This document shows, in pieces, positions 1,040 to 63,197 of a stretch of 64,000 bases of DNA (position 1 is the first letter of the stretch; every line of letters begins with the position of its first letter). The notes beneath the pieces are model-generated. The model worked only from the letters and a program-made list of their open reading frames with translations. It was not told the DNA's origin and did no database searches. This DNA comes from Comamonadaceae bacterium (lineage in GTDB: Bacteria; Pseudomonadota; Gammaproteobacteria; Burkholderiales; Burkholderiaceae_C): assembly GCA_031414805.1 (NCBI GenBank), contig JANOQJ010000088.1, positions 12,882 to 76,881 of the forward strand, given 5' to 3'. The position numbers and the translations under genes are program-made.

Positions 1040-1236
1040 AGCGTTGAAGAACAGCGTGCGCTAACTTTTTTGAGTTGAAGCGGATGTAAAGCCCTTGGCT
1101 TCGTGCTCAAATTTTGTGCAATGGCTTGCCTTTGTCGGGTGATTCGGGCAAACTCGCGCCTTCCGATTTTCGGGTTAACCCGGTAGCACAGTTCGGTGAC
1201 AAATTTCACTGCTGCTGCCTGGAAACGATTTCACCC

Positions 1237-1635
1237 GTGTCGAAACAAACCTTTTTTGGAAACCCTGTGCATCTTGCGCGCATTGCTGTTGTCGGTCTGC
1301 TGTCACTGGTGCTGCTAAGCACTGGCGCGCAGGCACGATCGCTCGCCGAGGACTCCATCCCTCTGGCTCAATTGCCCGCACAAGGCCGCGACACTTACGC
1401 CCTGATCACCCAGGGCGGCCCGTTTCCCTACGACAAAGACGGCAGCGTGTTTGGTAACCGTGAACGCCTGTTGCCCAAGCACCCGCGCGGCCATTACCGC
1501 GAGTACACCGTCAAGACACCCGGCGCGCGTAACCGGGGTGCCCGAAGAATCGTATGCGGTGGCCCCGCCAAGACACCCGAGGTTTGCTACTACACGGCAG
1601 ACCACTACAGCAGCTTTCGAAAGATTGCGCCCTAA
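1237..1635 (+). CDS. secreted guanyl-specific ribonuclease (barnase / RNase Sa / N1-T1 family)
   Basis: Lies in ORF 1114..1635. GGPFPYDKDGSVFGNRERLLP, YREYTV, RGARRIV and YYTADHYSSF match the microbial RNase fold. GTG at 1237 yields a signal peptide (IAVVGLLSLVLLSTGAQA). The start is uncertain; ATG 1114 is the alternative. Confidence 0.75.
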   Translation: MSKQTFFGNPVHLARIAVVGLLSLVLLSTGAQARSLAEDSIPLAQLPAQGRDTYALITQGGPFPYDKDGSVFGNRERLLPKHPRGHYREYTVKTPGARNRGARRIVCGGPAKTPEVCYYTADHYSSFRKIAP

Positions 1636-1712
1636 GCGTTTTGCTCGGTGCCCCAAAGGTGCTGAGCTTCAGACACAAGAACTATTTTTTGACTATAGAA
1701 AGTGAAGCGGAG

Positions 1713-2114
1713 ATGGACATGCCACTTCGTAGCGTACGACCCAACATCGTGCAATCGATTCGCGCCTTCCGGGTGCAAGACTTACAGGAAGCGGCCCAAT
1801 CCTTGGGCCAGCACTTCCTGTATGCCAATTTATCCAACGCGCAGGCCAAGCAGGATGTGTTGGATTTAATTGCCGATCAATTTACGTTCCCAGCGCATTT
1901 CGGCAAAAACTTCGATGCGCTGTACGACTGCATGACGGATTCAGTCCACAAATCGGGCCCTCAACCCGGCTTCATTGTGGTGCTGGAGCAGATTCCGGCG
2001 AACCTGAAGTTCGACAAAGAGGCCCGCGAGCAATTGCTGGACATCTTCCGCGACGCTGCAGATTATTGGGGGGAGCGAAAAATACCGTTTCGCTGCTTCT
2101 ATTCTTTTCTGTAG
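1713..2114 (+). CDS. barstar-family ribonuclease inhibitor (immunity protein for the upstream RNase)
   Basis: ATG 1713 inside ORF 1554..2114. Motif FPAHFGKNFDALYDCMTD. Located directly downstream of the RNase gene. Confidence 0.75.
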   Translation: MDMPLRSVRPNIVQSIRAFRVQDLQEAAQSLGQHFLYANLSNAQAKQDVLDLIADQFTFPAHFGKNFDALYDCMTDSVHKSGPQPGFIVVLEQIPANLKFDKEAREQLLDIFRDAADYWGERKIPFRCFYSFL

Positions 2115-2417: not shown

Positions 2418-3221
2418 TCATGGGCGCGCCAGCGCCGTCATCTTCATGGCCAGCGCCACGTATTCATCAACAGGCACCTCTTCGGCACGACGTTGCGCAT
2501 CAAAAGGCTCGTCGTGCTGATGTTCTTCCAGCCAGCGCCCCAGCGTGTGCCGCAAAATTTTGCGGCGCTGGCTGAACGCCACCTGCACGATTTCCGAGAG
2601 CAGTTTGACATCGACGTCGGGTGGCTGCGCCAGCGGCACCATGCGCACCACCGAGCTGTCGACACGGGGCGGTGGGTTGAATGATTCGGGGGGCACATGC
2701 AAAACGTGCTCCATGGTGTAGCGCCATTGCAGCATCACACTCAGGCGGCTGTAATCCGCCGTGGCAGGCCTGGCCAGCATGCGGTCGACCACCTCTTTTT
2801 GCAGCATGAAGTGCTGGTCTTGTATGTGCTGTGCGAATGGCAAGAGATGAAACAGGATGGGCGTGGAGATGTTGTAGGGCAAGTTGCCCACCACACGCAG
2901 TGAGCCACGATTTGCTACTGAATTAATAGCTGTTTCAGCAGTATTTATAAGGGCAAAGTCCACTTTTAATACATCGGCCTCAATCACCGTCAACTGCGGG
3001 TGCTCACGCAGCCGCACCGCGAGGTCGCGGTCCAGCTCGATCACGGTGAGATGGCCCAGTCGCTCAACCAGGGGCTGCGTCAGTGCGGCCAGACCCGGGC
3101 CGATTTCGACCATGTGCTGGCCCGGCTCTGGCGCAATGGCGGAAACGATGGCCTCAATGATCCCGCCGTCGGCCAGAAAGTGCTGACCAAAGCGCTTGCG
3201 GGCAACGTGCTTCATGCTCAC
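2418..3221 (-). CDS. rsmA: 16S rRNA (adenine1518/1519-N6)-dimethyltransferase
   Basis: [19 protein letters not shown] and [17 protein letters not shown] motifs. ATGA overlap with the surA stop. Contains repeat copy 2914..2970 in frame. Confidence 0.93.
2914..2970 (+). repeat. structured ~60-nt repeat, copy inside rsmA (forward orientation)
   Basis: gctactgaattaatagctgtttcagcagtatttataagggc plus tail. Confidence 0.8.
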
Positions 3222-7122: not shown

Positions 7123-8208
7123 ATGACCCACCCGACCGAACCGACCACTGTCTCCAACCCCATTGTGTGGGCCGATCACGAGCGACAAACGGCGTTCAAC
7201 AAATGGCTGGCCACGGTCAGCGGCCCACAGGCATTGATGCCCGAAAGCCTACGCAGTGCCTCGGCCGACGCCAGTTTTCGCCGTTACTTTCGCATTGATC
7301 AGGCCGCAGGCGGCAGCCGCATCATCATGGACGCGCCGCCCACGCTGGAAGACTGCAAACCGTTTGTCAATGTGGCTGCGTTGATGCGCCAGGCCGGCTT
7401 GCAAGTGCCAGACGTCCTGGCGTGGGACGAAACCCAGGGCTTTATGCTGCTCAGTGATGTGGGTCAGCACACCATGATGCAGGTGCTGAAGCCAGACGAG
7501 CCGCAGGCCAATCAGGCTTTGTTTCTGCAAGCGGCCGATGAGTTGGTGCGCTGGCAACTGGCTTCCCAGCCCGGCGTGCTGCCCGTCTACGACGCGCCGC
7601 TGCTGACCCGCGAACTGGCCTTGTTTCCCGACTGGTACATCGCGCGCCACCGCGCGGTGGTGCTGAGCGACAAGCACCAAGCCATTCTGGACAAAGCGTT
7701 GCAACTGATTGTTCAGCGAAATCTCGCCGCCGCCAGCGTCTATGTGCACCGCGATTTCATGCCCCGGAATTTGATGATGCCCACGGGAGACAACACCCGC
7801 CTGTCGATCCTGGACTTTCAGGACGCTGTCTATGGCCCCATCACCTACGACATTGCCAGCCTGATGCGCGACGCCTTCATTAGCTGGGACGAGGAATTCG
7901 TGCTGGACATCACGGTGCGCTACTGGCAGCGCGCCCAGAAAGCCGGGCTGCCGGTCGACGCGGACTTTGGCGACTTTTACCGCGCGGTGGAGTGGATGGG
8001 CTTGCAGCGCCATTTGAAAATAGCGGGCATTTTTGCCCGCATCACCCTGCGGGACGGCAAACCCAAATACCTGGCTGACACGCCACGCTTCATCGGCTAC
8101 ATCCGCGCCACCTGTAACCGCTACCGCGAGCTGGGGCCGCTGCTGCAGGTGATTGACCACATCGAAGGCACGCAGGCTGCCACGGGTTACGCGTTTGGGC
8201 GCGTGTAG
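7123..8208 (+). CDS. aminoglycoside-phosphotransferase-fold kinase (AmgK-like MurNAc/GlcNAc anomeric kinase candidate)
   Basis: APH-fold catalytic motif VHRDFMPRNLM and ILDFQDA. The divergent arrangement with lptD is typical for amgK. No murU follows it here. Confidence 0.6.
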   Translation: MTHPTEPTTVSNPIVWADHERQTAFNKWLATVSGPQALMPESLRSASADASFRRYFRIDQAAGGSRIIMDAPPTLEDCKPFVNVAALMRQAGLQVPDVLAWDETQGFMLLSDVGQHTMMQVLKPDEPQANQALFLQAADELVRWQLASQPGVLPVYDAPLLTRELALFPDWYIARHRAVVLSDKHQAILDKALQLIVQRNLAAASVYVHRDFMPRNLMMPTGDNTRLSILDFQDAVYGPITYDIASLMRDAFISWDEEFVLDITVRYWQRAQKAGLPVDADFGDFYRAVEWMGLQRHLKIAGIFARITLRDGKPKYLADTPRFIGYIRATCNRYRELGPLLQVIDHIEGTQAATGYAFGRV

Positions 8209-8220
8209 TGCTGTTTGTGG

Positions 8221-8277
8221 CACTTTTAGGCCTCTAGCCCTTGTAAATACTGCTCAAGCAGCTATTGAATTAATAGC
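8221..8277 (-). repeat. structured ~60-nt repeat, intergenic copy (reverse orientation)
   Basis: cacttttaggcctctagcccttgtaaatactgctcaagcagctattgaattaatagc. Confidence 0.9.
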
Positions 8278-8292
8278 AAAATAAAACAAACC

Positions 8293-9027
8293 ATGCCCCG
8301 TTTTCACTGCCCCACCCCGCTGCATACGGGCTTGAGTCTGGATCTGCCGCCCAGCGCCGCTCGGCACGTGCAGGTGCTGCGACTGCAGCCGGGCAGCGCC
8401 ATCACCCTGTTCAACGGCGAGGGCGGTGAATACGCCGCGCAGGTTGAACTCATGGGGCGAAGCGACGTGCGCGTGACGGTGGGCGCGCATGACCCGGTGG
8501 CGCGTGAAGCAGCCCGCGCCGTCCACCTGTTGGTGGGTATGCCCACCAACGAGCGCATGGACTGGCTGGTGGAAAAAGCCACCGAACTGGGTGCCGCCAG
8601 CATCACGCCCCTGGTAACCGAGCGCACCGTGCTCAAGCTGTCCGGCGAGCGGGCCGATAAAAAACGCGCCCACTGGCAGGCTATTGCGGTGGCGGCCTGC
8701 GAGCAGTGCGGGCGCAACCGGGTGCCGGTGGTGCATGCGGTGCGGGCTTTTGGCGCGGAAATAACGACAGGTTTGGCTGCGACCACCCCGCAGCGTTGGG
8801 TCCTCAGCCTGAGCCCGCAGGCGCAAAGCCTTCATGGCTTGCTCACGGCGGCTGCGCCACCGGCTGTCACCCTGCTGTCCGGGCCCGAAGGCGGCTTGAG
8901 CGCAGCCGAGGAGGCCCAGGCCCTGGCGCAGGGCTATGCTGCGCTGTCGCTGGGTCAGCGCACACTGCGCGCTGAAACCGCACCGCTGGCTGCCTTGGCT
9001 GCGATTGACTTGTTACTCCTGAATTAA
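8293..9027 (+). CDS. rsmE: 16S rRNA (uracil1498-N3)-methyltransferase
   Basis: MPRFHCP start, and LVGMPTNERMDWLVEKATELG and LSGPEGGLS motifs. The stop codon lies inside repeat copy 9014..9077. Confidence 0.88.
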   Translation: MPRFHCPTPLHTGLSLDLPPSAARHVQVLRLQPGSAITLFNGEGGEYAAQVELMGRSDVRVTVGAHDPVAREAARAVHLLVGMPTNERMDWLVEKATELGAASITPLVTERTVLKLSGERADKKRAHWQAIAVAACEQCGRNRVPVVHAVRAFGAEITTGLAATTPQRWVLSLSPQAQSLHGLLTAAAPPAVTLLSGPEGGLSAAEEAQALAQGYAALSLGQRTLRAETAPLAALAAIDLLLLN

Positions 9028-9077
9028 TAGCTGCTTGAGCAGTATTTACAAGGGCTGGAGCCCGATTTGACATAAAA
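9014..9077 (+). repeat. structured ~60-nt repeat, spans the rsmE stop codon
   Basis: tactcctgaattaatagctgcttgagcagtatttacaagggctggagcccgatttgacataaaa. Confidence 0.9.
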
Positions 9078-9088
9078 AGAACCCCACC

Positions 9089-10270
9089 ATGAACCGCAAC
9101 CTCTGGCTGTTGGCGCTATGCCAAGGCCTGTTTCTCACCAACAACGTGACCTTCATCGCCATCAACGGCCTGGTCGGCCTGGCCCTGGCCCCGTTAGGTT
9201 GGATGGCGACGTTACCGGTGATGGGGTACGTCGTGGGCGGGGCGCTGTCGACCGTGCTGGTGGCGCACACGCAAGCGCGGCATGGGCGCAAGCGATCGTT
9301 TCAAATGGGCGCGGTGGTGGCTTTCGTGAGTTGCCTGCTGTGCGCTTGGGCGGCGATTGAAAAACAATTTTGGTGGCTGTGTGCAGCCACGGTGGTGGCG
9401 GGTTACTACAACGCCAATGCACAGTTGTACCGCTTTGTTGCCGCTGAATTGGCCAAGCCTGAAGCGCGAGAAAAAGCCGTCTCCATCGTGATGGCGGGCG
9501 GCCTGCTGGGTGCCGTGGCGGGGCCGAATCTGGCGGCTTACACGCGCACCGCCCTGGGCGTTCCGTTTGCCGGGGCCTATGTGGCGCTGGCGGGGGTGGC
9601 GGTCTTGAGTTTGTTGCTGCTGTCGGTGATTGACTTTCCCCCGCCACCGCCCAAAAACACCGCAGCGGGCGGACGGCCACTGAGCGAAATCATCCGCCAG
9701 CCGATCTTCATCGTCGCCGCGGCCGCCGGGGCTCTGGGTTACGGCGTGATGAACCTGCTGATGGCCGCCACGCCGCTGGCCATGCAGCAATGCGGCCTGC
9801 CGTTCTCTGACGCGGCGCTGGTGCTGCAGTGGCATGTGATTGGCATGTTTGCGCCCGGGTTTTTCACCGGGCACCTGATCAAACGCTTTGGCGCGTTACC
9901 CATCATGGGCGTGGGCGTGGCGCTGAATGCGGCTTGCATTGCGGTGGCCTTGTCGGGCGTGGACTTGCATCAGTTTCTGCTGGCATTGTTGATGCTGGGC
10001 GTGGGCTGGAATTTTTTGTTCACGGGCAGCACCACCCTGTCGCTGCAGGCCTTTCGGCCAGAAGAAAAAGACCGGGCACAGGGCGCTTTGAACTTTTGCG
10101 TGTTTGCCACCTTGGCTGTGACCTCGCTGGCCTCAGGCGTGCTGGTCACGACGCAGGGCTGGGCGCTGCTGAATTGGGGGTCGCTGCTGCCGGTGGCGGT
10201 GACAGCGGGGGCGCTGGTCTGGCTTGCAGTTGTCACCCGGCGCGTCCAGAATGCACCGTCGGTTAGCTAA
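9089..10270 (+). CDS. MFS transporter
   Basis: 393 aa with about 12 hydrophobic helices. Confidence 0.8.
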   Translation: MNRNLWLLALCQGLFLTNNVTFIAINGLVGLALAPLGWMATLPVMGYVVGGALSTVLVAHTQARHGRKRSFQMGAVVAFVSCLLCAWAAIEKQFWWLCAATVVAGYYNANAQLYRFVAAELAKPEAREKAVSIVMAGGLLGAVAGPNLAAYTRTALGVPFAGAYVALAGVAVLSLLLLSVIDFPPPPPKNTAAGGRPLSEIIRQPIFIVAAAAGALGYGVMNLLMAATPLAMQQCGLPFSDAALVLQWHVIGMFAPGFFTGHLIKRFGALPIMGVGVALNAACIAVALSGVDLHQFLLALLMLGVGWNFLFTGSTTLSLQAFRPEEKDRAQGALNFCVFATLAVTSLASGVLVTTQGWALLNWGSLLPVAVTAGALVWLAVVTRRVQNAPSVS

Positions 10271-10295: not shown

Positions 10296-10763
10296 ATGGG
10301 ATTATTGGATTCGGTTTTAGGCGCAGTCGCGGGACAAATGGGTGGGCAACAAAATCAGGCGGCGGCTGGTGGGCTGGGTGGCATTTTGAGCATGGTGGCC
10401 AACAACCCACAGATGCTGCAGGTCATCACCGGCATGCTGGGTAACGACGGCCAGCAAGGTGGCCTGGGCGGCTTGATGGACAAATTCCAGCAGGCTGGCA
10501 TGGGCGACGTGATGGGCTCCTGGGTGGGCGGTGGCCAGAATCAAGCCATCAATGGCGACCAGCTCAGCCAGGTGCTGGGTGGCGATGCGCTCAGCAGCAT
10601 TGCCGAACGACTGGGCATGTCGCAAGGCGACGCGGCGGGCCAACTGTCGCAAATTCTGCCGGGGCTGATTGACCAGCTCACACCGCAAGGTCAGGCACCT
10701 GCCGGTGGCCTGGGTAACAGCGGTGATTTGATGGGAATGCTGGGTGGTTTGCTATCTAAATAA
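10296..10763 (+). CDS. YidB-family (DUF937) glycine-rich protein
   Basis: MGLLDSVLGAV start, G/Q-rich middle and GMLGGLL end. The stop lies inside repeat copy 10751..10812. Confidence 0.7.
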   Translation: MGLLDSVLGAVAGQMGGQQNQAAAGGLGGILSMVANNPQMLQVITGMLGNDGQQGGLGGLMDKFQQAGMGDVMGSWVGGGQNQAINGDQLSQVLGGDALSSIAERLGMSQGDAAGQLSQILPGLIDQLTPQGQAPAGGLGNSGDLMGMLGGLLSK

Positions 10764-10812
10764 TAGCTGTTTGAGCAGTATTGATAAGGGCTGACGGCTC
10801 TTATCATCAAAA
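10751..10812 (+). repeat. structured ~60-nt repeat, spans the yidB-like stop codon
   Basis: gctatctaaataatagctgtttgagcagtattgataagggctgacggctcttatcatcaaaa. Confidence 0.88.
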
Positions 10813-15077: not shown

Positions 15078-16457
15078 CTAGCCGACCAGAAAGCTCTTAA
15101 TCAGTAAACCCGCCACCGCGCAGCCCGCAATCACGGGAATCACCCCAGCCTTTTGGCTGAACAGCATCCACGCAGCGGCCAGCATGACGACCACTGCCGC
15201 CCAGTCGATTTGGGCATAAAAAGGGCCTTCAGCCCTTTTATTGATTGCTACAGCAGCTATAAAAAACAGAGCAAGATGTGCCATCACACCTACCACCGCC
15301 GCGCTGATGGCTGTCAATGGTGCGGTGAACCCCAGCTTGCCGTGGGTCGATTCCACCAGGGGACCGCCCGCCAGGATGAAGATGAATGAGGGTAAGAAGG
15401 TGAACCAGGTCACGACCACCGCGGCCATTGCGGCCCCCATAAACAGCATGTCGGGCCCTAGCACCTGCCGGGCCCAGCCCCCCAAAAAGCCGACAAAAGC
15501 CACCACCATGATCAGCGGGCCCGGCGTGGTCTCGCCCAGGGCCAAACCATCGATCATTTGCGCCGCCGTCAGCCACTGGAAATGTTCCACCGCGCCCTGG
15601 TACACATAGGGCAGCACTGCATAAGCACCGCCAAAGGTCAGCAGCGCAGCTTTGGTAAAAAACCAGGCCATTTGCGTCACCGTGCCCTGCCAGCCAAAGC
15701 TCAGCAGCAAAGCCGCCATGGGCAGCAACCACAGCGCCGCACCGACCACCAGCACGGTGGCCAGGCGGCTTCGGGAAAAGCGTGCGTGGATGGGCGTGGG
15801 CGTGCCATCGTCGATCGCTGCGGGTGGGTGCGCCGCATCCGTCTCAGCTTTCCCCGCATGACCGCCCGGTCCCGCAAATTGCCCCGGTGCCCAGCGCGAG
15901 CCCAGCCAACCAACCACCGTGGCCACCAGCACGACCGCTGGAAACGGCACGTTCAAGAACGCAATTGCTATAAAACTCATAGCTGCCAGAGCAGTTAATA
16001 CAGGGGCCTTTGTCGGTTTCTTCAATACTTTGCTGCCGATTCGCCAAACCGCGTGCACCACAATGGCCGCCACCGCAGGCTTGATGCCGTACAGCAGCGC
16101 GGCCACCCACGGCACCTGGCCAAACACCACATACACCCAGCTCAGCGCTATCAAAATGAACAGCGACGGCAGCACAAACAGCACGCCCGCCGCCACGCCG
16201 CCCCAGGTGCGGTGCATGAGCCAGCCGATGTAGGTGGCCAGTTGCTGCGCCTCCGGTCCGGGCAGCAACATGCAGTAATTCAGCGCGTGCAGAAAACGCC
16301 TGTCGGAAATCCACCGGCGCTCATCCACCAGCACACGGTGCATCAGCGCGATCTGCCCGGCCGGGCCGCCAAAGCTGATAAAGCCCAGCTTGAACCAGAA
16401 GGCCAGCGCTTGGGTGAATGAAATGGTGTTTGGGTTGTGGTCGGTGGTGGCGATCAT
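15078..16457 (-). CDS. chrA: chromate efflux transporter ChrA
   Basis: Two CHR halves (FGGPAGQIALMH, TFGGAYAVLPY). Start taken at ATG 16457; upstream in-frame ATGs exist. Carries two degenerate repeat copies in frame. Confidence 0.88.
   Translation of the reverse strand: MIATTDHNPNTISFTQALAFWFKLGFISFGGPAGQIALMHRVLVDERRWISDRRFLHALNYCMLLPGPEAQQLATYIGWLMHRTWGGVAAGVLFVLPSLFILIALSWVYVVFGQVPWVAALLYGIKPAVAAIVVHAVWRIGSKVLKKPTKAPVLTALAAMSFIAIAFLNVPFPAVVLVATVVGWLGSRWAPGQFAGPGGHAGKAETDAAHPPAAIDDGTPTPIHARFSRSRLATVLVVGAALWLLPMAALLLSFGWQGTVTQMAWFFTKAALLTFGGAYAVLPYVYQGAVEHFQWLTAAQMIDGLALGETTPGPLIMVVAFVGFLGGWARQVLGPDMLFMGAAMAAVVVTWFTFLPSFIFILAGGPLVESTHGKLGFTAPLTAISAAVVGVMAHLALFFIAAVAINKRAEGPFYAQIDWAAVVVMLAAAWMLFSQKAGVIPVIAGCAVAGLLIKSFLVG
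15231..15267 (-). repeat. degenerate repeat copy inside chrA (reverse orientation)
   Basis: agcccttttattgattgctacagcagctataaaaaac has about 27/38 ungapped matches to the reverse consensus. Its reading frame is the same as the dprA copy. Confidence 0.5.
15967..16007 (+). repeat. degenerate repeat copy inside chrA (forward orientation)
   Basis: gctataaaactcatagctgccagagcagttaatacaggggc has 31/41 ungapped matches to the consensus. Confidence 0.65.
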
Positions 16458-16522
16458 TTGGAGTTTCTCTTTTCTTGCGCGTCGTCTTGCCGCTTCAGCC
16501 TTGCGCCGCCACTCGGCGGTGT

Positions 16523-17455
16523 TCATGGCTGCTTCCAGTTGTGCGCCTCGTCTTGTGCCAGCACCTTGTCGCAGCACCAGGCGTAGAGCGCGTCATACAG
16601 CGGTAGGGCAGCTTGCAGCATGGTGTGGTCATCGGCGTGCAGTCGCGACAAACCCAGCGAAAACGCCAGCAAACCAGCGGATTGCGCTGCCAAGTCCAGC
16701 CGGTCGGTATCCGCCCCGCGCACGATGCGGGCCAGCAAATCCAGCGCGGGGTTTTTAAGTTCAAACCCGCCCAACAATGCATCAAAGCTGCACAACTCAC
16801 CCACATGCGAGACCGGCGCGCCGGGAATGTCGTAGGCCACCGCGTTCAAGCGCCTGGCTTCTTCAAACACCTGGGGTGTGGGCACGTAAAAAAATTCGGC
16901 GCGCGGGTCGATGAAGCGGCTAATTAACCAGGGGCAGGCAATGCGATCAATCTTGGGTCGCTCGCGTGTGATCCAATGCGAGGCGTGCTCGCCCGTGACG
17001 CCCCAATCGGGTCGCTTGCGCAGGGTGAGCGCGGGGTTCCCCCGCCACTGCTTCGTGTTCTGCGGTGTGTCCTCGCCGTCTTGCCCGCCTTCGATGCCAC
17101 CTTCGAGCGCGCAGGCATTCCAACCCGCTGCACGCAACTGCGCCACCGCATCGGCGCTGACGTTATGGCCATAGACGCAATACACCACCACCTCGCGCGG
17201 TGGCTGGCTGGCCGCCCATGCGGCCACGTCTTCGGGCTTGCAGCGCTGCGCGGTGGCGATGAGGTGGGGGCTTGAAGCAAACTTTTCTTCGCGCCGCACA
17301 TCGAGCACCAGCGGCGCGTCAGGTCTCCCCAAACGAAGGTTCAACGCCTGTGGGGAAGTGGAAAAAGCACGGTTGAACGCAGAGGGATTTGCAGATGCAA
17401 TTGAGGTGTCCACGGATAACTCCAAGTGAGAATTACCAGCGCTTGGACGGGACAC
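16523..17455 (-). CDS. rhodanese domain fused to a ChrB C-terminal (chromate resistance) domain
   Basis: N-terminal rhodanese-like segment (VLDVRREEKF...YCVYGHNVS). C-terminal ChrB-type motif RPKIDRIACPWLISRFIDP. Located directly upstream of chrA. Confidence 0.75.
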   Translation of the reverse strand: MSRPSAGNSHLELSVDTSIASANPSAFNRAFSTSPQALNLRLGRPDAPLVLDVRREEKFASSPHLIATAQRCKPEDVAAWAASQPPREVVVYCVYGHNVSADAVAQLRAAGWNACALEGGIEGGQDGEDTPQNTKQWRGNPALTLRKRPDWGVTGEHASHWITRERPKIDRIACPWLISRFIDPRAEFFYVPTPQVFEEARRLNAVAYDIPGAPVSHVGELCSFDALLGGFELKNPALDLLARIVRGADTDRLDLAAQSAGLLAFSLGLSRLHADDHTMLQAALPLYDALYAWCCDKVLAQDEAHNWKQP

Positions 17456-17556
17456 CGTCTATCTGTGAAGCAGGAGTTTCAAGATTCGGGAGGCTGCTTT
17501 CCCGATAGCTCAGATGATAGCTTGCGTTTTGATTCGACTCGCCAACTCACTCCGGG

Positions 17557-18893: not shown

Positions 18894-20768
18894 TCAAAGC
18901 TTCAACGCGTCCAATCCCTTGATGAAGTTTCGCTTGGCTTTGTATTCTGCCCGCAGGCGTGCCAGCCACTGACCGTGGTCTGGCTGCTTCATGAGAGACG
19001 CTACTTCCGCAACCAGCTCCAACACGTCGGTGTAGGGCGTGCTGGCTTGCGGCATGCGCGCTGCGAAAACGCGGTGCAGCAGCGCCAAAGCCTCTGCCGG
19101 TTTTGTGTCGCGAATCTTTTTGGCAAGCGTGTAGAGCAATTTATCGTCACACGCATGCGGGGGCTGCACCAGCGCCAGCGCCTCATCGGTTTTGCTTTCG
19201 TGCAGCAACCAGGTCGCTCGCGTGGTGACGGATCGCCCTGTGTTTGTGGGTCTTGAAAAGTACAGGCGTGACGGCTTGGATTTCGCGTCCTGCACTTCAC
19301 GTGCCGCCACCCACTCGTACAGGGATGCGCGGTAAGTCTGGCGGTCATGCCCCGCCGCCACAGCAGCTTTCAGCACGGCGTCAAACTTCTCGGGGCTGGG
19401 GTTGTGCTCCAGGCGGGTGCGATGAATGGCCAAGGCTTCCGCGTCCCAGCCATCGCGCTCGTAGCAGCGCAGCAAGTCGTCCTGGATGCGCCAGTCTTGC
19501 GGAAAGAGTTTGCGCGCCTTGAGCGCGTAGTCCAAGGCCTCGCGCATTTTGTTCATCGACTCACACCAGGCGATCAGCTCGCTGTGTTCGTGTGCCTCCT
19601 GCAGGCTGGCAGACAGCGCTTGCAGCACGGCTGCGTCATCGCCTTGACGCTTCAGGTCTTCGATGTAGCGTCGGCGCAGCTGCGATCGCTCGGCATCCCA
19701 TCCCCCAGAAACACCCGTGAAAATCAGGCTACGTGCCTTGCGCTTGCCCTGGGCATCAAACGAGGTTTGCTCAGACATTGACTGAACACAAGCCAACCAA
19801 TCGGCTTGCACCCGCTCGCTGTAACGTTTTTGCACCAATGGCCCTGCAACTTCGAGCACGTCGGACTCGCGCCACAAGCCCCAGGGGTCGGCCTCCATCA
19901 ACGCAAACCATTCGTCCAGCCATTGCGCAGGCGGCGGCGCGGCCTTCAGTGTCTTGAGCAGCAAGGCTTGCACGCCATACATCAGGTCGCCAATCATGCC
20001 GCCCGAATCGTCAGCGTGTTCGCCCACCTTGTACAGCTTGCGCAGCGCATAGGCGCAGGCTGCGCGGCCTTGTTCGGGCGAAGCGTGTGCAATTCTCTCA
20101 AGCAGGGGATAGACCGCCTCGGCACGTCTGGCGTAGGCGTTGGATTCAGCCCAGCCATAAAAACTGCGCGACTTCTCCAACATGGTGGCAATGGCGTCTT
20201 TCCAGCCACCCGGTTCCTGCACCGCCACGCTCTGCGCATGCCACGACTTCAACACCGCCATCAGGTCGCGGTCTGTCTCGGCCAACTGCCACAGCTTCTC
20301 AGCCAAACTGGTGGCGTCCTGGGCAAACACAAAGGCCTTGAGTGCATCCCGCTTGCTGGCGACGGTGGCCTGGCGTTTTTGGGACGCTATTGATTTAATA
20401 GCTGCTTGAGCAGTATTTGCAAGGGCTGGAGCGGCATTTCCTTCTAATTTACAGCGCCAGAAGAGGCCTGCGGCCACCATGTGCTTGCAAAACGCGCCTT
20501 CTTGCGCATGCGGGCAGGTACATGCCGTGTGCAGGCCTACGTCTTCAAAATACAACTCGGTGCTGTAGGTCTGCGTGCCTTTGACCGTGAACGTTGCATT
20601 GCCTCCGCCATCACGCGGCATGCTGACCTTGCCTGCGGAAAAATAGGCATGCCCGCGTTCAAATATGTCTTCGCCCGCCATCTCACGCAGCGCATCGTCT
20701 GACAACTTTTCGGCCCAGTTGTCAGTAATCTCTGCCCAACGTGCCGCGAAGTCTTTTTTTACTGCCAT
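18894..20768 (-). CDS. SWIM zinc-finger protein with a long helical-repeat C-terminal region
   Basis: CxCx(n)CxH signature [14 protein letters not shown] near residue 90. The remainder is alpha-helical repeat-like. Repeat copy 20386..20445 is in frame just after the SWIM motif. Confidence 0.75.
20386..20445 (+). repeat. structured ~60-nt repeat, copy inside the SWIM gene
   Basis: gctattgatttaatagctgcttgagcagtatttgcaagggctggagcggcatttcc. Confidence 0.9.
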
Positions 20769-23589: not shown

Positions 23590-23638
23590 TGCTACGGCCC
23601 GAAGAAGTATCAATAGTGTGTGGCTCCGAGGAATAGTC

Positions 23639-23702
23639 GCTACTAAATCAATAGCTGCTTGAGCAGTATTCGCAAGGGCTAGTGGCCGATTTGGCACTAA
23701 AA
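23639..23702 (+). repeat. structured ~60-nt repeat, intergenic
   Basis: gctactaaatcaatagctgcttgagcagtattcgcaagggctagtggccgatttggcactaaaa. Confidence 0.9.
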
Positions 23703-25707: not shown

Positions 25708-25720
25708 GTCGTATTCAAGC

Positions 25721-25784
25721 GCTATCGAATACGTAGCTGCCTGAGCAATCAATTCAAAGGCTGTAGCCGTATTTGGCAGTGAAC
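25721..25784 (+). repeat. structured ~60-nt repeat, diverged intergenic copy
   Basis: gctatcgaatacgtagctgcctgagcaatcaattcaaaggctgtagccgtatttggcagtgaac. Confidence 0.75.
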
Positions 25785-30126: not shown

Positions 30127-30182
30127 AGAAAACAGCCATCAGCCCTTATAGATACTGCTCAAGCAGCTATTATAAACGTAGC
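30127..30182 (-). repeat. structured ~60-nt repeat, intergenic (reverse orientation)
   Basis: aaaacagccatcagcccttatagatactgctcaagcagctattataaacgtagc. Confidence 0.88.
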
Positions 30183-30199
30183 AAAAAGCCTCAGAACTA

Positions 30200-30874
30200 T
30201 TAGCTCTGGGGTTTGAGTTGCCCGGTCAGCTTTTGCAGTTTGGCCAAGTCTTCCGGCGCAGTTTGCGGCTGCAGTAGCTCCGCGCGCCCGTGCAGCCGCC
30301 CATTGGTGTAGTTGCTGATGCTGTTGAGCATGCGGGCGGGGTGCAGATTTGCCTTGGACGCATCTTTTAGAAACACTGCCACAAAATCGTTCCAGATGTC
30401 CAGTCGTTGTCCCGTTGTGAACGACTCCAGCAACGCTGGGTTGTAGCCCGACCGGTTGGCCCAGCCAACCAAGGCCAAACCGGCGTCAGGATAAAACCGC
30501 CAACAATCAACGGGGTACTGGTGAAACTCGCCATTGGACGGCGCATTCAAATAAAAAAGCCCCTCCGGTTTGAGCACCCGCAAGACTTCGTTGAACATCA
30601 ACCAGAAAAACTCAACATGCTCAAAGCACGAACTGCTCACCACCGCATCAAAAGATGCCGACTCAAATGGCAGCTGATACGCATCTTGCAGCACGATGTC
30701 CACGCCACGGCCGGCAACGAAGTCCACACCGACACAGCGGGCAGCTCGGGGCGCTACATCACGCAAAGACCCGTTGACGTTCAGCGCACCAATGTCCAGC
30801 ACCACCCGTTCAGCCTCGTCGTTCAGATAGGTCTGGAAAAACAAGCGTCCGTTGTCGACCGCGGTTGGATGCAT
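30200..30874 (-). CDS. class I SAM-dependent methyltransferase
   Basis: VLDIGA motif I and a FDAVVSSSCFEHV / LKPEGLF pattern. Confidence 0.78.
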   Translation of the reverse strand: MHPTAVDNGRLFFQTYLNDEAERVVLDIGALNVNGSLRDVAPRAARCVGVDFVAGRGVDIVLQDAYQLPFESASFDAVVSSSCFEHVEFFWLMFNEVLRVLKPEGLFYLNAPSNGEFHQYPVDCWRFYPDAGLALVGWANRSGYNPALLESFTTGQRLDIWNDFVAVFLKDASKANLHPARMLNSISNYTNGRLHGRAELLQPQTAPEDLAKLQKLTGQLKPQS

Positions 30875-31035
30875 CTAGGTGGTCCCCTGTTCAAAAAGTC
30901 TGGATGGTTCAAATGGGCTCGGGAATCAGGAATTTTGTTGTTTGTTTCACCCCACAAAGCATTCTTGCGGTCATGGATGCTGTAGTAACTAAGCCTGACG
31001 CAGGGTTATAGTCCAGAGGATTAACCCACAAAACG

Positions 31036-32418
31036 GTGTGCAAAATGTCACAGTTTTCCAAATGCTACTTTCGCCTTGGCTTGGGCGGGTTGGTAGGGCT
31101 TGTTTGTGCGGGCGTATCGGCGCAAACAGGGACTGTTGAACCGTTGGACCGACAAAGCGACGAGGCCTTCCGGCAGGTGTTGCAACAGCCTCAAAACCTC
31201 GGGCTCTGGTCTGCATATGCGCAACTCTTGGTCCAAGCTGGCAACTATGAAGGCGGTATCGCTGCTCTGGACCGCTTGCTGCTGAACCCTGACGCGAATC
31301 CATATCTGCGGGTTGAAATTGCACTGCTGTACTTCCGGTTGGGGTCATACGCACCTGCCGAGGCCATGTTGCGCACAGCGCTTCAAGACCCTCGATTGCA
31401 AGGCGACCAGCGCGCATTTGCAAGCACGTTGATGACTGAGGTGGCCAAGCGCAACCAACGTTCACAACTGAGCGGGTCGGTGGTGCTGGGCTTGCGTAGC
31501 CAGACAAACCCCACGTTTCGCACCAACAGCGCGCAGGTTTTGTCTGCCGGTGTTCTTGGCGCGTTGGCTGCTGACCAAAAACCCGATGCTGATACCGATG
31601 TGAGCCTGGGCTTGCGCGTACAACACCTGTACGACCTGGACCTGCAGAATTCGGCAACCATTTCCACCTCGCTGGGCGCCTATCTGGTGAACTACCGGTC
31701 GTCTGCTGGCAGTCAACTACAAGTCAGCCCGACCAAGCCCTATGACCTGCAAGTCGTTGACGTTTCAACAGGGCTGCAATTCAAACCGTTTCCTTCGTCG
31801 TTTTCTGAACTGACGATGCGCCCGCACATTTTGTTGTCAAACGTCGTCGCGCAAGGCCATCAGTACCTGGGAAATCATGGGGTGGGTATTGATTTCACCT
31901 GGCGGCCTGACGAGCGCACGCTGGTGGACGTCACGCTGGATCGTCAAAGGCGAAACTTTGCTAGCCGCATCGACGTGGTCAATGCGGACCTGCTGGACGG
32001 CCATTTATACGGTGTGCGCTCGCGCATCAGCCGTGAAATGGGCTCGGGACAGGTGCTCACGGGGGAATACGCGACCAAACGCAACCGGGCCAAGCGTGAG
32101 TTCTACAACTACGACTCTCATGAGTTTCGCGTGACTTACTCGATGTCGTACAAGAGCCCGATGGCTGACGCTGGTTACTGGACAACAGCCGTGTGGCTGG
32201 GCGCGCTCAATCGGTCTTACGATGCGCCCGATGCGTCTGTCAGCGCCACCGAAACGCGACGCGACCGTGAGGCGCGCATCGGCATTAGCCATCATGTGCC
32301 ACTCACCGCTTCGTGGTCGTTGCTGTTAACTGCCGAACACTCGCGTAACCAGGCAAACCTGCCTAATTTCCGTTACAAAAACACGTCGCTGTCGGGTGCC
32401 GTGGTGCGTGGCTTCTAA
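31036..32418 (+). CDS. outer-membrane protein: N-terminal TPR region plus C-terminal beta-barrel
   Basis: Signal peptide (LVGLVCAGVSAQT) and about 150 aa of TPR-like helices. These are followed by alternating beta-strand patterns ending in the C-terminal aromatic signal ...GAVVRGF. Confidence 0.65.
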   Translation: MCKMSQFSKCYFRLGLGGLVGLVCAGVSAQTGTVEPLDRQSDEAFRQVLQQPQNLGLWSAYAQLLVQAGNYEGGIAALDRLLLNPDANPYLRVEIALLYFRLGSYAPAEAMLRTALQDPRLQGDQRAFASTLMTEVAKRNQRSQLSGSVVLGLRSQTNPTFRTNSAQVLSAGVLGALAADQKPDADTDVSLGLRVQHLYDLDLQNSATISTSLGAYLVNYRSSAGSQLQVSPTKPYDLQVVDVSTGLQFKPFPSSFSELTMRPHILLSNVVAQGHQYLGNHGVGIDFTWRPDERTLVDVTLDRQRRNFASRIDVVNADLLDGHLYGVRSRISREMGSGQVLTGEYATKRNRAKREFYNYDSHEFRVTYSMSYKSPMADAGYWTTAVWLGALNRSYDAPDASVSATETRRDREARIGISHHVPLTASWSLLLTAEHSRNQANLPNFRYKNTSLSGAVVRGF

Positions 32419-32428
32419 GGAGTAACCC

Positions 32429-33232
32429 ATGAGCCCTCCCATCTCCAAAGACTGGTGGCTGGCTGCCGCCCTGACCAGCGCAGCACTGCCAGCAGCGCTG
32501 GGTCAACCGGCTGCCGGTGAGAATCGTCCTCAAAGTGCCGTTGTCACATCGGCCATAGCCGGTTCACGCACGGCGAACAACACGTCGATCTACATTGATG
32601 GCACCAGTGACCATCGGCTGATCACCGACGCCAAAACAACGATGCACGTACTGTTCTCCGATCAGTCGGCGATCACTTTGGGCCCAAATTCGGAGCTGGT
32701 CATCACGAAATACCAGTTTGATTCGCGGGCCAAAACCGGTCAGCTATTGATCAACATGAGTAAGGGGCTGCTCCGCGTCGTCGGTGGTTTTCTCAGTAAG
32801 AAAAGCGAGACCGTGGTGCGAACAAATACCGCGACCGTGGGCATACGCGGCGGCATTTCCCTGATCGAGAGCGACGACACGCAAACCAACGCCACGTTCC
32901 TTTTCGGGCAACAAATGCGGGTGTCCAGTCTGGACGACACTCAGAATCAGACGGTCACCCGGCCAGGGTTCGGCGTCACAACATCGAGCAATGGGCCATC
33001 AAGCCCGTTCCGCAGGCCGATTGGCGAGATTTCCAGCCAATTGCGGCAGCTGGATCTGACCAACGAGTCAGAACAAGGGTCAACACCTCCCACCGCCCAG
33101 TTGCCGTCTGATGATGTCAACGCGTACGCGCCAGACCGGGTCAATGCAGTTGGGGACGATCCTGACATGGGATTCCAGGCCCCGACGTTGAGAGATGTTC
33201 TGGGCAGCCAGTCGCCCGGCAATCAGTCCTGA
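32429..33232 (+). CDS. secreted FecR-domain protein with a low-complexity C-terminal tail
   Basis: Signal peptide with no lipobox Cys. FecR-like segment MHVLFSDQSAITLGPNSELVI. Starts 10 nt after the OMP gene. Confidence 0.6.
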   Translation: MSPPISKDWWLAAALTSAALPAALGQPAAGENRPQSAVVTSAIAGSRTANNTSIYIDGTSDHRLITDAKTTMHVLFSDQSAITLGPNSELVITKYQFDSRAKTGQLLINMSKGLLRVVGGFLSKKSETVVRTNTATVGIRGGISLIESDDTQTNATFLFGQQMRVSSLDDTQNQTVTRPGFGVTTSSNGPSSPFRRPIGEISSQLRQLDLTNESEQGSTPPTAQLPSDDVNAYAPDRVNAVGDDPDMGFQAPTLRDVLGSQSPGNQS

Positions 33233-33277
33233 GTTCGGTCAGTCGTGCCGTCATCCGTCCAGAGGCTGCGCTGAGCC

Positions 33278-34315: not shown

Positions 34316-34319
34316 GCGG

Positions 34320-41204: not shown

Positions 41205-41274
41205 GGGCTTTGAGTGTGGGGACGCGGGACGTCCATGGCAGGAATCCTACAATAGGTTTTCTGTCGGAGTACGC

Positions 41275-42099: not shown

Positions 42100-42116
42100 T
42101 CAGCCTGCTGTGCGCT

Positions 42117-43583: not shown

Positions 43584-43656
43584 GGCTGTCTCCGTTCGGT
43601 TGAGCCTATATTCTTACCGCACGGGGTTACCAATTGGGTACAGGTTTGAATTGGTT

Positions 43657-43720
43657 GCTATTAGTTATATAGCTGGTTGAGCAGTATTTAAAAGGGCTAG
43701 AAGGCTATTTCACTCATAAA
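43657..43720 (+). repeat. structured ~60-nt repeat, pyk-pgk intergenic
   Basis: gctattagttatatagctggttgagcagtatttaaaagggctagaaggctatttcactcataaa. Confidence 0.88.
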
Positions 43721-44933: not shown

Positions 44934-44968
44934 GGCGGTGTGCACGGGTTAAGTGAAACGATTGAGTT

Positions 44969-46132: not shown

Positions 46133-47125
46133 TCAGGACGGGTTGGGCGCAGGCGGGCCGCCAAACACCATACCGGGCTTCAATTCAAAGCCACGCAAAA
46201 AGTCAGCGACCGCCAGGCGCTTGCCGCCAGCGCGCTGCAGCTCGGTGATGCGCAGGGTACCGCTGCCGTCATGACCACAGACCACCCCAATGGCTTCGTC
46301 ATTTACATAAGAAATAGTGCCACAGACCTTGTCAATACTGCTCAAGCAGCTATCAATTTCGCAGTGCCAAAGCTTGATGACTTCGCCATTCAAGGTGGTA
46401 AACGCACCCGGAAACGGGTTGAAGGCGCGCACCTGGCGGGTCAGGCTGGCGGCATCTTGCTGCCAGTCCAGCGCGGCTTCGGCTTTTTCAATTTTGTGGG
46501 CGTAGCTGATGCCGGTTTCGGGTTGTTTGACCGGTTTCAGTGCGCCTTGACTTGCCAATTGCAGCGCTTGCACCATCAGCCGCCCACCCATCTGCGCCAG
46601 CGCATCGTGCAGGCTGCCGGTGGTGTCGGTGTCGGCAATGGGCAAGGCTTGCGTCAGCAGCATGTCGCCGGTGTCCAGGCCCGCGTCCATCTGCATGATG
46701 GTGATGCCCGTTTGCGTGTCGCCTGACTGCACGGCGCGGTGAATCGGTGCCGCGCCGCGCCAACGGGGCAGCAGGGAGGCATGAATATTGAAAGCGCCCA
46801 GACGTGGCGCGTCCAGCACCCATTGCGGCAGGATCAAGCCATAGGCGGCGACGACCATGGCGTCGGCCTGTGCCGCCAGGATAGCTTCGCGCGCAGCCTG
46901 CGCGTCGTCAGGAAACTTGCCGTCCAGACGAAGGCTGCGGGGCTGGGCCACCGGGATCTGGTGCGACTGGGCAAACTGCTTGACGGCAGACGCGTGTAGT
47001 TTCAATCCCCGTCCTGCGGGGCGATCCGGCTGGGTGAGCACCAGCGCAATCGAAAACCCGCTGGTATGCAGCTGCTGCAGGGCAATGCTTGCGAACTCGG
47101 GCGTGCCCGCGAAGATGATGCGCAC
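46133..47125 (-). CDS. fmt: methionyl-tRNA formyltransferase
   Basis: [26 protein letters not shown] motifs. Located downstream of def. Repeat copy 46324..46367 is in frame in the C-terminal domain. Confidence 0.93.
46324..46367 (-). repeat. repeat core inside fmt (reverse orientation)
   Basis: agaccttgtcaatactgctcaagcagctatcaatttcgcagtgc. Confidence 0.8.
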
Positions 47126-49633: not shown

Positions 49634-50830
49634 GTGACCGCTTCGGTGTGGGACTCGGATGAACTGGCCGCCTGGTTGCGGCTGTTGCTGACACCGGGCA
49701 TCGGCAACACCAGTGCGCGCAGCCTGCTCAAGGCATTCGGCCCGCCGCAAGCTATTTTTGACCAGCCTGTCAGTGCTTTGCGCCAATGCGTCAGCGCGGC
49801 GCAGGCAGCTGCACTACACACCCCACCGCCCAGCCTGCCCGCGTTACTGCTGTCCACAACGCAGTGGCTAGCAGACTCGCAAGCGGAAGGCGCCAGCCCG
49901 CCACCTATTCGCCGCTTGCTCACGCTGGCCGACGCGAACTACCCCTCGGCACTGCTGGAAATGGACGACCCGCCATTGCTGTTGTACACGCTAGGAGCGG
50001 GCACCTTTGTCACCACGCTGCCAATGCGGGCCATCGCCGTGGTGGGTAGTCGCAACCCCACACCGCAGGGACTGGTGAATGCCCAGGCGTTTGGGAAAAG
50101 CCTTGCGCAAGCGGGCCTGACCGTGATTTCCGGTCTGGCACTCGGCATCGACGGGGCGGCACACGAAGGTGCGCTGCAGGGCGCGGCAGACGGCCAGTTG
50201 TCCACCGTTGCCGTGGTGGGCACCGGGCTGGACCGCGTCTACCCCAAACAGCACCTGGCGCTGGCGCGGCGCATTGCGCAGCAAGGTTTGCTGATCAGCG
50301 AGTATCCCTTGGGCACACCCCCCTTGCCTGCCAATTTCCCCAAGCGCAACCGCATCATTGCGGCGCTGAGTTCGGGCACGCTGGTGGTCGAAGCAGCGCT
50401 CAAATCAGGCTCATTGATCACGGCGCGTCAGGCACTGGAGCAAGGCAAAGAGGTGTTTGCGATTCCGGGCTCCATCCACACCACACAGGCGCGCGGTTGC
50501 CATTGGTTGATACGCCAGGGAGCCAAACTGGTGGAGTCGGCGCAGGACGTACTGGAAGAGCTTCGAATCCCCGCTCCGGCCTTAGACACTCCTGATTTAA
50601 TAGCTGCTCAAGCAATATTCACAAGGGCTGCAGCGTCAAATGAGTCTAAACCAGGACGATCGAACAGTCTGTTAAGCGATTTGGGTTATGACCCCATCAC
50701 CCTGGACGCCTTGATGAACCGCACGGGTCAGGACGCTGCGACGCTGCAAGCGCACCTGTTGGAGTTGGAACTGGAAGGCTTGGTGGCGCGCATGCCCGGC
50801 GGCCAGTTTCAGCGCATTGCGAGCGCCTGA
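49634..50830 (+). CDS. dprA: DNA-processing protein DprA (Smf)
   Basis: VVGSRNPT, SGLALGIDGAAH, NRIIAALS and GSLITA motifs, plus a C-terminal winged-helix segment. Repeat copy 50588..50636 is in frame in the interdomain linker. Confidence 0.9.
   Translation: MTASVWDSDELAAWLRLLLTPGIGNTSARSLLKAFGPPQAIFDQPVSALRQCVSAAQAAALHTPPPSLPALLLSTTQWLADSQAEGASPPPIRRLLTLADANYPSALLEMDDPPLLLYTLGAGTFVTTLPMRAIAVVGSRNPTPQGLVNAQAFGKSLAQAGLTVISGLALGIDGAAHEGALQGAADGQLSTVAVVGTGLDRVYPKQHLALARRIAQQGLLISEYPLGTPPLPANFPKRNRIIAALSSGTLVVEAALKSGSLITARQALEQGKEVFAIPGSIHTTQARGCHWLIRQGAKLVESAQDVLEELRIPAPALDTPDLIAAQAIFTRAAASNESKPGRSNSLLSDLGYDPITLDALMNRTGQDAATLQAHLLELELEGLVARMPGGQFQRIASA
50588..50636 (+). repeat. repeat copy inside dprA, central loop inverted
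   Basis: actcctgatttaatagctgctcaagcaatattcacaagggctgcagc. It shares the actcctga left arm with copy 9014. Confidence 0.8.
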
Positions 50831-50836
50831 AATAAA

Positions 50837-63176: not shown

Positions 63177-63197
63177 TATCTGTCAACAGATCATATT

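Follow-up and report, generated by a model that had tools for sequence, protein, structure and literature searches.

The stretch analyzed here, referred to as the window, is 64 kb of contig JANOQJ010000088.1 from a Comamonadaceae bacterium. Near its start, on the minus strand, lies rsmA (also named ksgA), and within this gene, antisense to it and in frame, lies one copy of a small AT-rich palindromic repeat that is dispersed over the window. The features of the gene and of its repeat copy are as follows.

2418..3221, minus strand: rsmA (ksgA) open reading frame (ORF), 267 amino acids (aa) from GTG or 265 aa from ATG, intact and uninterrupted (TIGR00755)
2901..2909, minus strand: codons R-G-S, which from loop comparisons are probably what is left of the displaced tail of the native loop ahead of LRVVGN
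2910..2954, plus strand (antisense to rsmA): repeat copy, 45 nucleotides (nt), 15 in-frame codons, third hairpin missing (profile match)
2914..2930, plus strand: hairpin or dyad 1 (GCTACT-GAATT-AATAGC), loop codons 9-14 in the mRNA
2930..2941, plus strand: hairpin 2 (CTGT-TTCA-GCAG), a degenerate version of the family core CTGC-TTGA-GCAG
2955..2970, minus strand: native K-V-D-F coding sequence of the motif III region, outside the repeat

The ORF is predicted to encode a full-length RsmA/KsgA 16S rRNA (A1518/A1519) dimethyltransferase. Its product matched TIGR00755 over profile positions 2-254 of 256 (1e-74, 251.1 bits versus a cut-off of 171), and it matched the Burkholderia RsmA structure 3UZU (1.5e-78) and E. 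coli KsgA (1e-71) with both domains covered. All RsmA motifs were present: GPG of motif I, E/D of motif II, D..F of motif III, and NLPY of motif IV, here GNLPYNIS. A 265-aa protein with 100% identity to it is present in a public collection, and PF00398 was recorded on all homologs. KsgA/RsmA is universally conserved, yet it is not essential in E. coli, where ksgA-deficient strains are viable, kasugamycin resistant, and cold sensitive (PMC8216452). On this point a preliminary description of the locus, made from the sequence by itself, went too far in calling the gene essential.

The repeat copy in rsmA was matched by a profile built from 9 strictly intergenic copies of the repeat, at 2908-2960 (E=2.3e-12, 42.3 bits); this profile gave zero matches in shuffled sequence. 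An earlier profile matched the copy at 2912-2954 (E=1.6e-10). On the coding strand, the copy reads GCC CTT ATA AAT ACT GCT GAA ACA GCT ATT AAT TCA GTA GCA AAT. The GC content around 2900-2975 was 32-36% versus 60% for the window, and the GC content at third codon positions (GC3) was 0.11 within the loop versus 0.71 for the gene. The preliminary description had placed an antisense, in-frame copy after the conserved D.L..DF motif of an ORF that stays open, and this is borne out by the profile match, by a translation identical to the one it gave, and by the uninterrupted, full-length match to TIGR00755. Its interval, 2914-2970, held only in part: the repeat-derived sequence is 2910-2954, and 2955-2970 is native K-V-D-F. 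The repeat alignment decayed at 2955-2970, and VDF was kept in all orthologs, with FNF in E. coli.

The repeat family to which this copy belongs is a small AT-rich palindromic interspersed repeat, genuinely dispersed, of which the 64 kb contains at least 16 copies at a density of about 1 per 4 kb. The 20-mer pattern ATAGCTGNTTNAGCAGTATT was matched 13 times in the window versus 0 expected, and a repeat search of the window grouped 10 plus-strand and 4 minus-strand copies. A full-length copy measures about 57 nt, and the consensus consists, in order, of TTGCTATT-AATTC-AATAGC, TGC-TTGA-GCA, GTATTTAYAAG, GGCT-NNN-GCC(C), and nATTT. Three short hairpins, HP1 to HP3, are contained in it (GCTATT-N5-AATAGC, CTGC-TTGA-GCAG, and GGGCT-N3-5-AGCCC). 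The short core was never found apart from the long element, the conserved unit being about 45-57 nt with about 30 constrained positions. Short intergenic spacers were nearly filled by the repeat, which occurred in both orientations relative to the flanking genes.

The insert in rsmA is located in the Rossmann domain of the protein, in the loop joining beta3 (VDF) to beta4 (LRVVGNLPY), at the site of alphaC. In an AlphaFold2 model made with a 50-sequence alignment (mean predicted local distance difference test score, 77), 10 repeat-encoded residues were predicted to form helix 88-97, the alphaC connection, with the remaining insert in a loop of low confidence (93-102). In this model, the position of the native alphaC helix was taken by the first 10 repeat-encoded residues. 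In the structure of E. coli KsgA on the 30S subunit, the contacts are R147, K155, R159, R221, R222, and R248, and none lies within 98-107 (PMC8216452). The insert peptide was found to evolve much faster than the remaining RsmA, with an identity over the first 15 loop residues of 53% at a core identity of 93% and of 39% at a core identity of 84%; it therefore fits a tolerated passenger, which is what these values suggest it to be.

The history of the loop was followed in 120 protein homologs at 73-89% identity and in 150 fetched loci (labeled L001 etc.). Between the F of VDF and LRVVGN, the protein encoded here has a spacer of 18 aa, compared with 10 aa for E. coli KsgA and 11 aa for Burkholderia pseudomallei RsmA according to PDB alignments. 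Most Comamonadaceae, including Hydrogenophaga, Ramlibacter, Limnohabitans, Acidovorax, Caenimonas, and others, have 10- to 11-aa loops of the form xxLAxxLxxPK with GC-rich codons. Loops of 18-30 aa with a shared core (...TAQAAI..IAN) were found in Rhodoferax/Polaromonas-type orthologs, examples being HVHTAQAAIENVAN and LIQPAQSATENIAN; the DNA of these loops still matched the repeat profile, and orthologous copies were present in dozens of relatives. The commonest long loop is 25 aa, composed of 15 repeat codons and then about 10 residues ending in K or R, and this tail probably represents the displaced native loop. In the 18- to 19-aa loops (the window, L081, L149, L001, L099, and L150), most of the tail is lost, and the net gain over the ancestral loop in this genome is only about 7 aa.

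The syntenic locus L081, whose RsmA is 89% identical, carries the orthologous rsmA copy together with the same three neighboring intergenic copies, and the copies of the window and L081 have diverged from each other by about 22%. An independent SRA assembly (L082) agreed with the sequence, and the rsmA copy is therefore no assembly artifact. A large group of orthologs has 11-aa loops of the type AQVAQAQAAIK, the DNA of which (TTTGATAGCNGCCTGCGCTTGTGC...) is homologous to the proximal 30 nt of the repeat-bearing loops, and these orthologs cluster with 18-aa “AQAQ” loops that still bear the distal arm. The simplest reading of the 11-aa “AQAQ” loops is that a secondary deletion brought them back to the length of the ancestral loop and left the repeat-encoded helix in place of the native one. 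Close relatives lacking the repeat were mostly such secondary deletion derivatives or belonged to more distant genera. The insertion is thus old and not specific to this genome, being shared across Rhodoferax/Polaromonas-type lineages, and it probably goes back to one single ancient event in rsmA. The preliminary description had given a spacer of 18 aa here and of about 10 aa in E. coli and had proposed that the repeat became a protein loop; the PDB alignments and a loop longer than the 10-11 aa of the outgroups agree with both statements. It had also named a finding that would speak against an insertion, namely, relatives with an equally long and similar loop but no nucleotide similarity to the repeat. 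The relatives with similar loops keep this similarity, as orthologous copies, and the outgroups have short GC-rich native loops.

Silent sites were compared in 26 nonredundant insert-bearing orthologs (core identity, mean 81%, minimum 53%), gathered by a fully degenerate back-translated pattern that leaves silent sites unbiased. GC3 was 0.33 in the first 15 loop codons versus 0.74 in the rest of rsmA. Loop codon 9 was GCT in 26/26 orthologs; in the remainder of rsmA, GCT accounts for 6% of the Ala codons. Codon 13 ended in A in 26/26 despite a varying amino acid (I, V, G, or E). Among 53 conserved 4-fold-degenerate columns of rsmA, only codon 9 had an invariant third base, and only codon 9 was dominated by A or T. 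The third bases of codons 9 and 13 pair with each other in HP1 (GCU AUU ... AAU AGC on the mRNA), and the outer three pairs of dyad 1 were invariant in 26-27 diverged orthologs. The invariance depended on the partner arm: codon 9 was GCT in 27/27 loops with both arms versus 12/25 of the 11-aa loops without the distal arm (Fisher P=8e-6, an optimistic value given that the sequences are phylogenetically related), and the latter had drifted to a GC3 of 0.62.

About 132 kb of flanking sequence in Rhodoferax-type loci was searched with the profile, with the loop of each locus itself (self-BLAST), and with a regular expression for the dyad, and no other copy of the repeat was found. Abundant donors therefore cannot explain the silent-site invariance, and upkeep by conversion from neighboring copies was rejected for these loci, with the proviso that lineage-specific variants do exist. 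In fmt, which carries another in-frame copy, the stretch TGC GAA ATT GAT AGC TGC TTG was identical in four orthologs with protein identities of 70-100%. No longer run of invariant nucleotides occurs in the gene, where third positions elsewhere were invariant in only 25% of cases, and GAA ATY GAT AGC TG was kept from this genome to Polaromonas and Ottowia (GC3 of Ottowia fmt, 0.89). From these comparisons we conclude that the dyad is probably under constraint at the nucleic acid level or, alternatively, is subject to a structure-dependent correction process.

In total, 5 or 6 of the 16 window copies are in frame within genes. Besides the copy in rsmA, these are as follows.

20385..20440, plus strand: full-length copy in a SWIM zinc-finger ORF (18894..20768, minus strand), antisense, 15-aa peptide, same frame as the rsmA copy (E=2.1e-15)
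46311..46367, minus strand: copy in fmt (46133..47125, minus strand), sense, in frame, inside the Formyl_trans_C domain, 17-aa peptide (profile match 46311-46364, E=1.3e-10)
50586..50641, plus strand: copy in the linker of dprA (49634..50830, plus strand), sense, in frame, peptide DLIAAQAIFTRAAAS (profile match 50589-50641, E=2.8e-9)
15219..15278, minus strand: copy in chrA (15078..16577, minus strand), sense, in frame, peptide LALFFIAAVAINKRAEGPF (E=4e-9)
15964..16007, plus strand: weak, degenerate second copy in chrA, antisense, same open frame, peptide VLTALAAMSFIA (E=1e-5)

Domain matches flanked the in-frame copy on both sides in rsmA, fmt, and dprA. In the consensus, antisense frame 1 is the only fully open frame, with a 19-aa reading, and it is the frame of each of the three coding copies in antisense orientation, namely, those in rsmA and the SWIM gene and the second one in chrA. 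The sense frame-1 copies, those of dprA and chrA, are without the TGA of the central TTGA loop, the stop codon having been removed in dprA by a change of TTGA to TCAA; the fmt copy uses an open stretch of frame 0. This frame usage matches the survivorship reported for Rickettsia palindromic elements (RPEs) and intragenic repetitive extragenic palindromic sequences (REPs) (PMC10969869, PMC3733652). The dprA copy is shared by the window and L152, occurs in decayed form in L153, and is missing from L154; it is a plain insertion that then decayed. In L152, the closest relative, fmt encodes DSCLSSIYKGC, the exact translation of the repeat consensus, and the segment overlaid by the fmt copy is a beta-hairpin. 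A chrB-b RNA motif (Rfam RF03086) was located at 17436-17505 on the minus strand (46.7 bits versus a gathering score of 36.5), upstream of chromate-resistance genes; the chrA next to it is the gene with one or two in-frame repeat copies.

The intergenic copies, all profile matches, are located as follows.

8227..8279, minus strand: intergenic copy (representative)
9012-9068, plus strand: intergenic copy
10749-10804, plus strand: intergenic copy
23636-23692, plus strand: intergenic copy
25720-25774, plus strand: intergenic copy
30129-30184, minus strand: intergenic copy
43654-43711, plus strand: intergenic copy
44966-45022, plus strand: intergenic copy
56776-56832, plus strand: intergenic copy
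63196-63252, plus strand: intergenic copy

Several possible identities of the repeat were rejected. No copy matched an Rfam family (gathering threshold for the whole window; E<=1 for 8150-9150), so that a known RNA family is not indicated. Folding energies were no better than those of shuffles on either strand (z about 0), which does not fit a stable RNA structure, and consensus scans for promoters and terminators showed no enrichment at repeat copies. The two ends of the repeat, TTGCTA... and ...GCCnATTT, do not form the terminal inverted repeats that a miniature inverted-repeat transposable element would have. Neither a target-site duplication nor the exact element ends were definable, filled and empty intergenic sites being without alignable flanks, and a scan of viral contigs with a degenerate repeat pattern found nothing. 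By orientation, the 16 copies are 12 plus and 4 minus, a bias that also appeared in the syntenic loci L081 and L152; relative to transcription, the copies showed none. The GC skew is flat in the window, and a replication-orientation bias of the copies is therefore uninterpretable.

Repeat variants specific to lineages were found in Polaromonas, in Albidiferax/Rhodoferax metagenome-assembled genomes, in Acidovorax, and in Ottowia, which makes the family an old one with a wide distribution in Comamonadaceae. The variants retain hairpin 1 and differ in hairpins 2 and 3, a pattern suggesting that the family has evolved in concert within lineages. They were located at L154 13343-13400, at L156 5975-6001 and about 1185 (minus strand), and at L157 9483-9534; one example is TTGCTATAAAATTTATAGCTCTTGGCGAGCG...AAGGGCTGAAGG, and the Ottowia variant is GCTACTTATTGCATAGCTGCCTGCGCTGATGG...GCGCTGGCGGCC.

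Taken as a whole, the rsmA segment is likely to be an in-frame relic of the repeat, with a passenger peptide and a constrained dyad. A 45-nt piece of the repeat would have landed antisense directly after the Phe codon of VDF, in the alphaC connection between beta3 and beta4, earlier than the split of the Rhodoferax- and Polaromonas-type lineages. It may have survived because the antisense frame used, alone among the frames of the element, is open throughout and because its translation is an Ala/Gln-rich helix that could replace the native one at the periphery of the protein surface, at a distance from the cleft that binds the 30S subunit. The 25-aa loops would then correspond to 15 codons from the repeat and about 10 native ones; this genome would later have shed most of the native tail to reach 18 aa, and other lineages would have shed the distal repeat arm too, returning to 11 aa. 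The nucleotides of dyad 1, silent positions included, would have stayed constant for as long as both arms were present, while the peptide evolved as a fast-changing passenger. The constraint would act at the nucleic acid level, through a putative mRNA or DNA hairpin or a putative dyad-symmetric binding site.

A number of observations weigh against this explanation. Covariation in HP1 was not significant (72.6% of cells paired versus 71.8% in shuffles, with 144/500 shuffles as high); the HP1 signal is therefore invariance and not compensatory change, and compensatory covariation, suggested by eye by GCTCCT/AGGAGC in L091 and L140 and by GCTAC/GTAGC in several orthologs, is not claimed. The predicted hairpins are weak, in line with folding energies at the level of shuffles, and the sequences in the silent-site test share ancestry. 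Given the diverged, lineage-specific variants, some family copies in other genomes may have escaped detection. The RsmA tree (225 aa, neighbor joining) cannot decide between one insertion and several. Finally, the first 10 rsmA repeat codons align gap-free with native-looking 11-aa loops (AQLAQAQAAPK), and the fmt copy overlays a native segment with no net change in length relative to orthologs without the repeat, neither of which is predicted by simple insertion.

The last two observations would be accounted for if the repeat, instead of moving by cut-and-paste, had overwritten partly similar native sequence by homology-seeded patch replacement. Template switching, gene conversion, or homology-facilitated recombination from genomic copies would have hit such sites repeatedly with little or no length change, and Ala/Gln-rich helices (GCN GCN CAR GCN GC) and I-D-S-C (ATY GAY AGC TGC), which resemble the palindromic core, could have served as seeds. 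The native-looking rsmA loop xQLAQAQxAPK, written in GC-rich codons, already has A-Q-A-A where the repeat is, with 9/12 nt identical; the E. coli fmt product presumably has a native I-D-[ST] at the repeat site, which we count in the same direction; and the Polaromonas rsmA copy has the local variant GCAGG, as do the intergenic copies of that genome. Overwriting is nevertheless an unlikely origin for the rsmA segment, since the 25-aa loops fit plain insertion (15 repeat plus 10 native codons), the 18-aa “AQAQ” loops with the distal arm share a clade with the 11-aa “AQAQ” loops, which for this reason look like deletion derivatives, and dprA offers a clean insertion-and-decay series. Moreover, Rhodoferax-type genomes retain the rsmA copy with no donor copies detected nearby, and the window and L081 copies, at their 22% divergence, have not been homogenized. 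Still less probable is chance or convergent resemblance to an Ala-rich helix without any insertion. Such helices do inherently resemble the GCTGCTCAAGCAGC core, but the profile match (E=2e-12) extends over 45-53 nt and includes the nonhelical arm TTGCTACTGAATT, and the low GC3 of the loop and the short outgroup loops point the same way; this idea is effectively refuted by the profile E-values and the shuffles.

The nature of the constraint on the dyad is a separate matter. The GCUAY-N5-7-RUAGC dyad in rsmA and fmt might be a functional cis-element, exapted from the mobile repeat and kept by purifying selection through genus-level divergence, with the peptide as a by-product; it could act as a putative mRNA hairpin in translation, decay, or processing or as a putative site for a dyad-recognizing protein. 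This view overlaps the preferred explanation rather than competing with it, and we offer it tentatively. It is favored by the partner-arm dependence of the silent-site invariance, by retention of the copy in genomes without nearby family copies, by the parallel nucleotide conservation in fmt against strong GC3 pressure, and by G-U-type intermediates, which were commoner on the mRNA strand (8 versus 4). The lack of significant covariation, of an Rfam family, and of a promoter or terminator signal, together with the weak hairpins, detracts from it, and some lineages have deleted one arm with the gene still intact. Selection on the host gene would not be needed at all if the repeat were an uptake-signal-like or other genome-wide motif under molecular drive, spread by biased uptake and recombination or by hairpin-templated quasi-palindrome correction. 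Drive would explain both silent-site conservation and in-place overlay, and the motif is indeed abundant, present in both orientations, found in coding sequence in permissive frames, and conserved at orthologous positions; the partner-arm dependence would fit intrastrand template correction. We nonetheless consider drive improbable. The conserved unit, at about 45-57 nt with about 30 constrained positions, is long, its short core does not occur without it, and it is spaced at about one per 4 kb; template correction predicts covariation of both arms, and none was significant. We also know of no uptake specificity in this family, which counts against drive as well.

For the preferred explanation of an in-frame relic, the significance lies in the setting and in the range of stages observed. 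In-frame palindromic repeats were first seen as a peculiarity of Rickettsia and later sporadically, and they are now found in free-living, GC-rich Comamonadaceae. The copies provide graded snapshots, from a fresh copy through a decaying copy and a trimmed copy to a loop that has regained its original length with a repeat-encoded helix in place of the native one, and thus a natural series for how selfish or noncoding DNA turns into protein sequence. The partner-arm-dependent invariance of silent sites points to a nucleic acid-level constraint in two translation-related genes, and it calls for caution in codon-based selection analyses and in gene annotation in these genomes.

The immediate downstream neighbors of rsmA, encoded opposite to it at 1114-2114 (plus strand), are a pair of genes for a barnase-like ribonuclease and barstar, and the Pfam families Ribonuclease and Barstar were recorded in the syntenic locus L081. 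Unlike in E. coli, pdxA was not found between surA and rsmA here. A segment of about 12 kb, at about 30200-42100 of the window, is absent from the syntenic loci L152 and L153, in which the genes for the esterase and aldolase come directly after pyruvate kinase. The products of this segment are glycosyltransferases, a 1732-aa protein with TPR, GT2, GT41, and GT1 domains, a FecR-like protein, and several methyltransferases, and one of its edges adjoins the repeat copy at 30129-30184, which is orthologous to L152 15231-15279.

Among known systems, RPEs were proposed in the preliminary description as the analogy, and the share of window copies that lie in frame in genes makes it an apt one. Like RPEs, the repeat is a dispersed palindromic sequence with three inverted repeats, found between genes and also in frame in unrelated housekeeping genes with intact ORFs (rsmA, the SWIM-domain gene, fmt, dprA, and chrA); only permissive frames are used, the peptide is found at the surface or in variable regions of the protein, and copies are common to related species. 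RPEs are about 100-150 bp long and occur in the AT-rich, reduced genomes of obligate intracellular Alphaproteobacteria (Ogata et al. 2000/2002; PMC10969869, PMC3733652). In contrast, the rsmA element is 45-57 nt and AT-rich within free-living Comamonadaceae of 60-65% GC; judged by length and host, the repeat does not belong to the RPE families. To our knowledge, dyad-dependent silent-site invariance has never been reported for RPEs. It is not described for them in the two sources consulted (PMC10969869, PMC3733652).

The behavior of REPs is also close. GTAG/CGTC-tagged REPs are mostly intergenic stem-loops, of which a minority lie wholly inside genes, in frame, in Opitutus, Thauera, Xanthomonas, and Stenotrophomonas (PMC3733652), and two species of Xanthomonas have REPs at approximately one site of recB (Di Nocera, De Gregorio and Rocco 2013, PMC3733652). 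A classical REP consists of one GC-rich stem, 20-40 bp long, with a strict tag, either GTAG or CGTC, and is often accompanied by a REP-associated tyrosine transposase (RAYT) gene (PMC3733652). The window repeat has [A/G]TAG directly before hairpin 2, TAGCTG being its best conserved block, but it differs in having three short AT-rich hairpins with stems of 4-6 bp and, in most copies, ATAG. No transposase was noticed among the ORFs examined in the 64-kb window, no genome-wide search for RAYT (IS200/IS605-type Y1) genes having been made.

The BRE family shares the same kind of hosts with the window repeat and is likewise mostly intergenic with some coding copies. BREs measure 75-91 bp with 69% GC, are often tandem, and have the core GCCCCCTCGGGGGGCAGC (Hot et al. 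2011; PMC3110155); their hosts are Polaromonas, Rhodoferax, Acidovorax, and Bordetella, and some copies lie wholly within coding sequences (PMC3110155). The rsmA element, at 32-36% GC and without the core GCCCCCTCGGGGGGCAGC, is not a BRE. Two tandem GC-rich BRE-like units were located just downstream of dprA, at 50822-50882 and 50906-50966, 84 nt apart. Their reverse complement contains CCCCCTCGGGGGGCAGC, the BRE core (PMC3110155), and a related copy was found at L081 5344-5413. A second, unrelated repeat family therefore coexists in the window. The uptake signal sequences of Pasteurellaceae and the DNA uptake sequences of Neisseria have cores of 9-12 nt and accumulate by point mutation. They resemble the window repeat as abundant motifs that are tolerated in particular frames of variable protein parts and conserved at orthologous positions, but the unit of the window repeat is far longer and is structured. 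Full-text literature searches found no description of an AT-rich Comamonadaceae element of this kind. The repeat is thus a new family with the known in-frame behavior of REPs and RPEs, and what it adds to these systems is retention across genera at two orthologous sites together with dyad-dependent invariance of silent sites.

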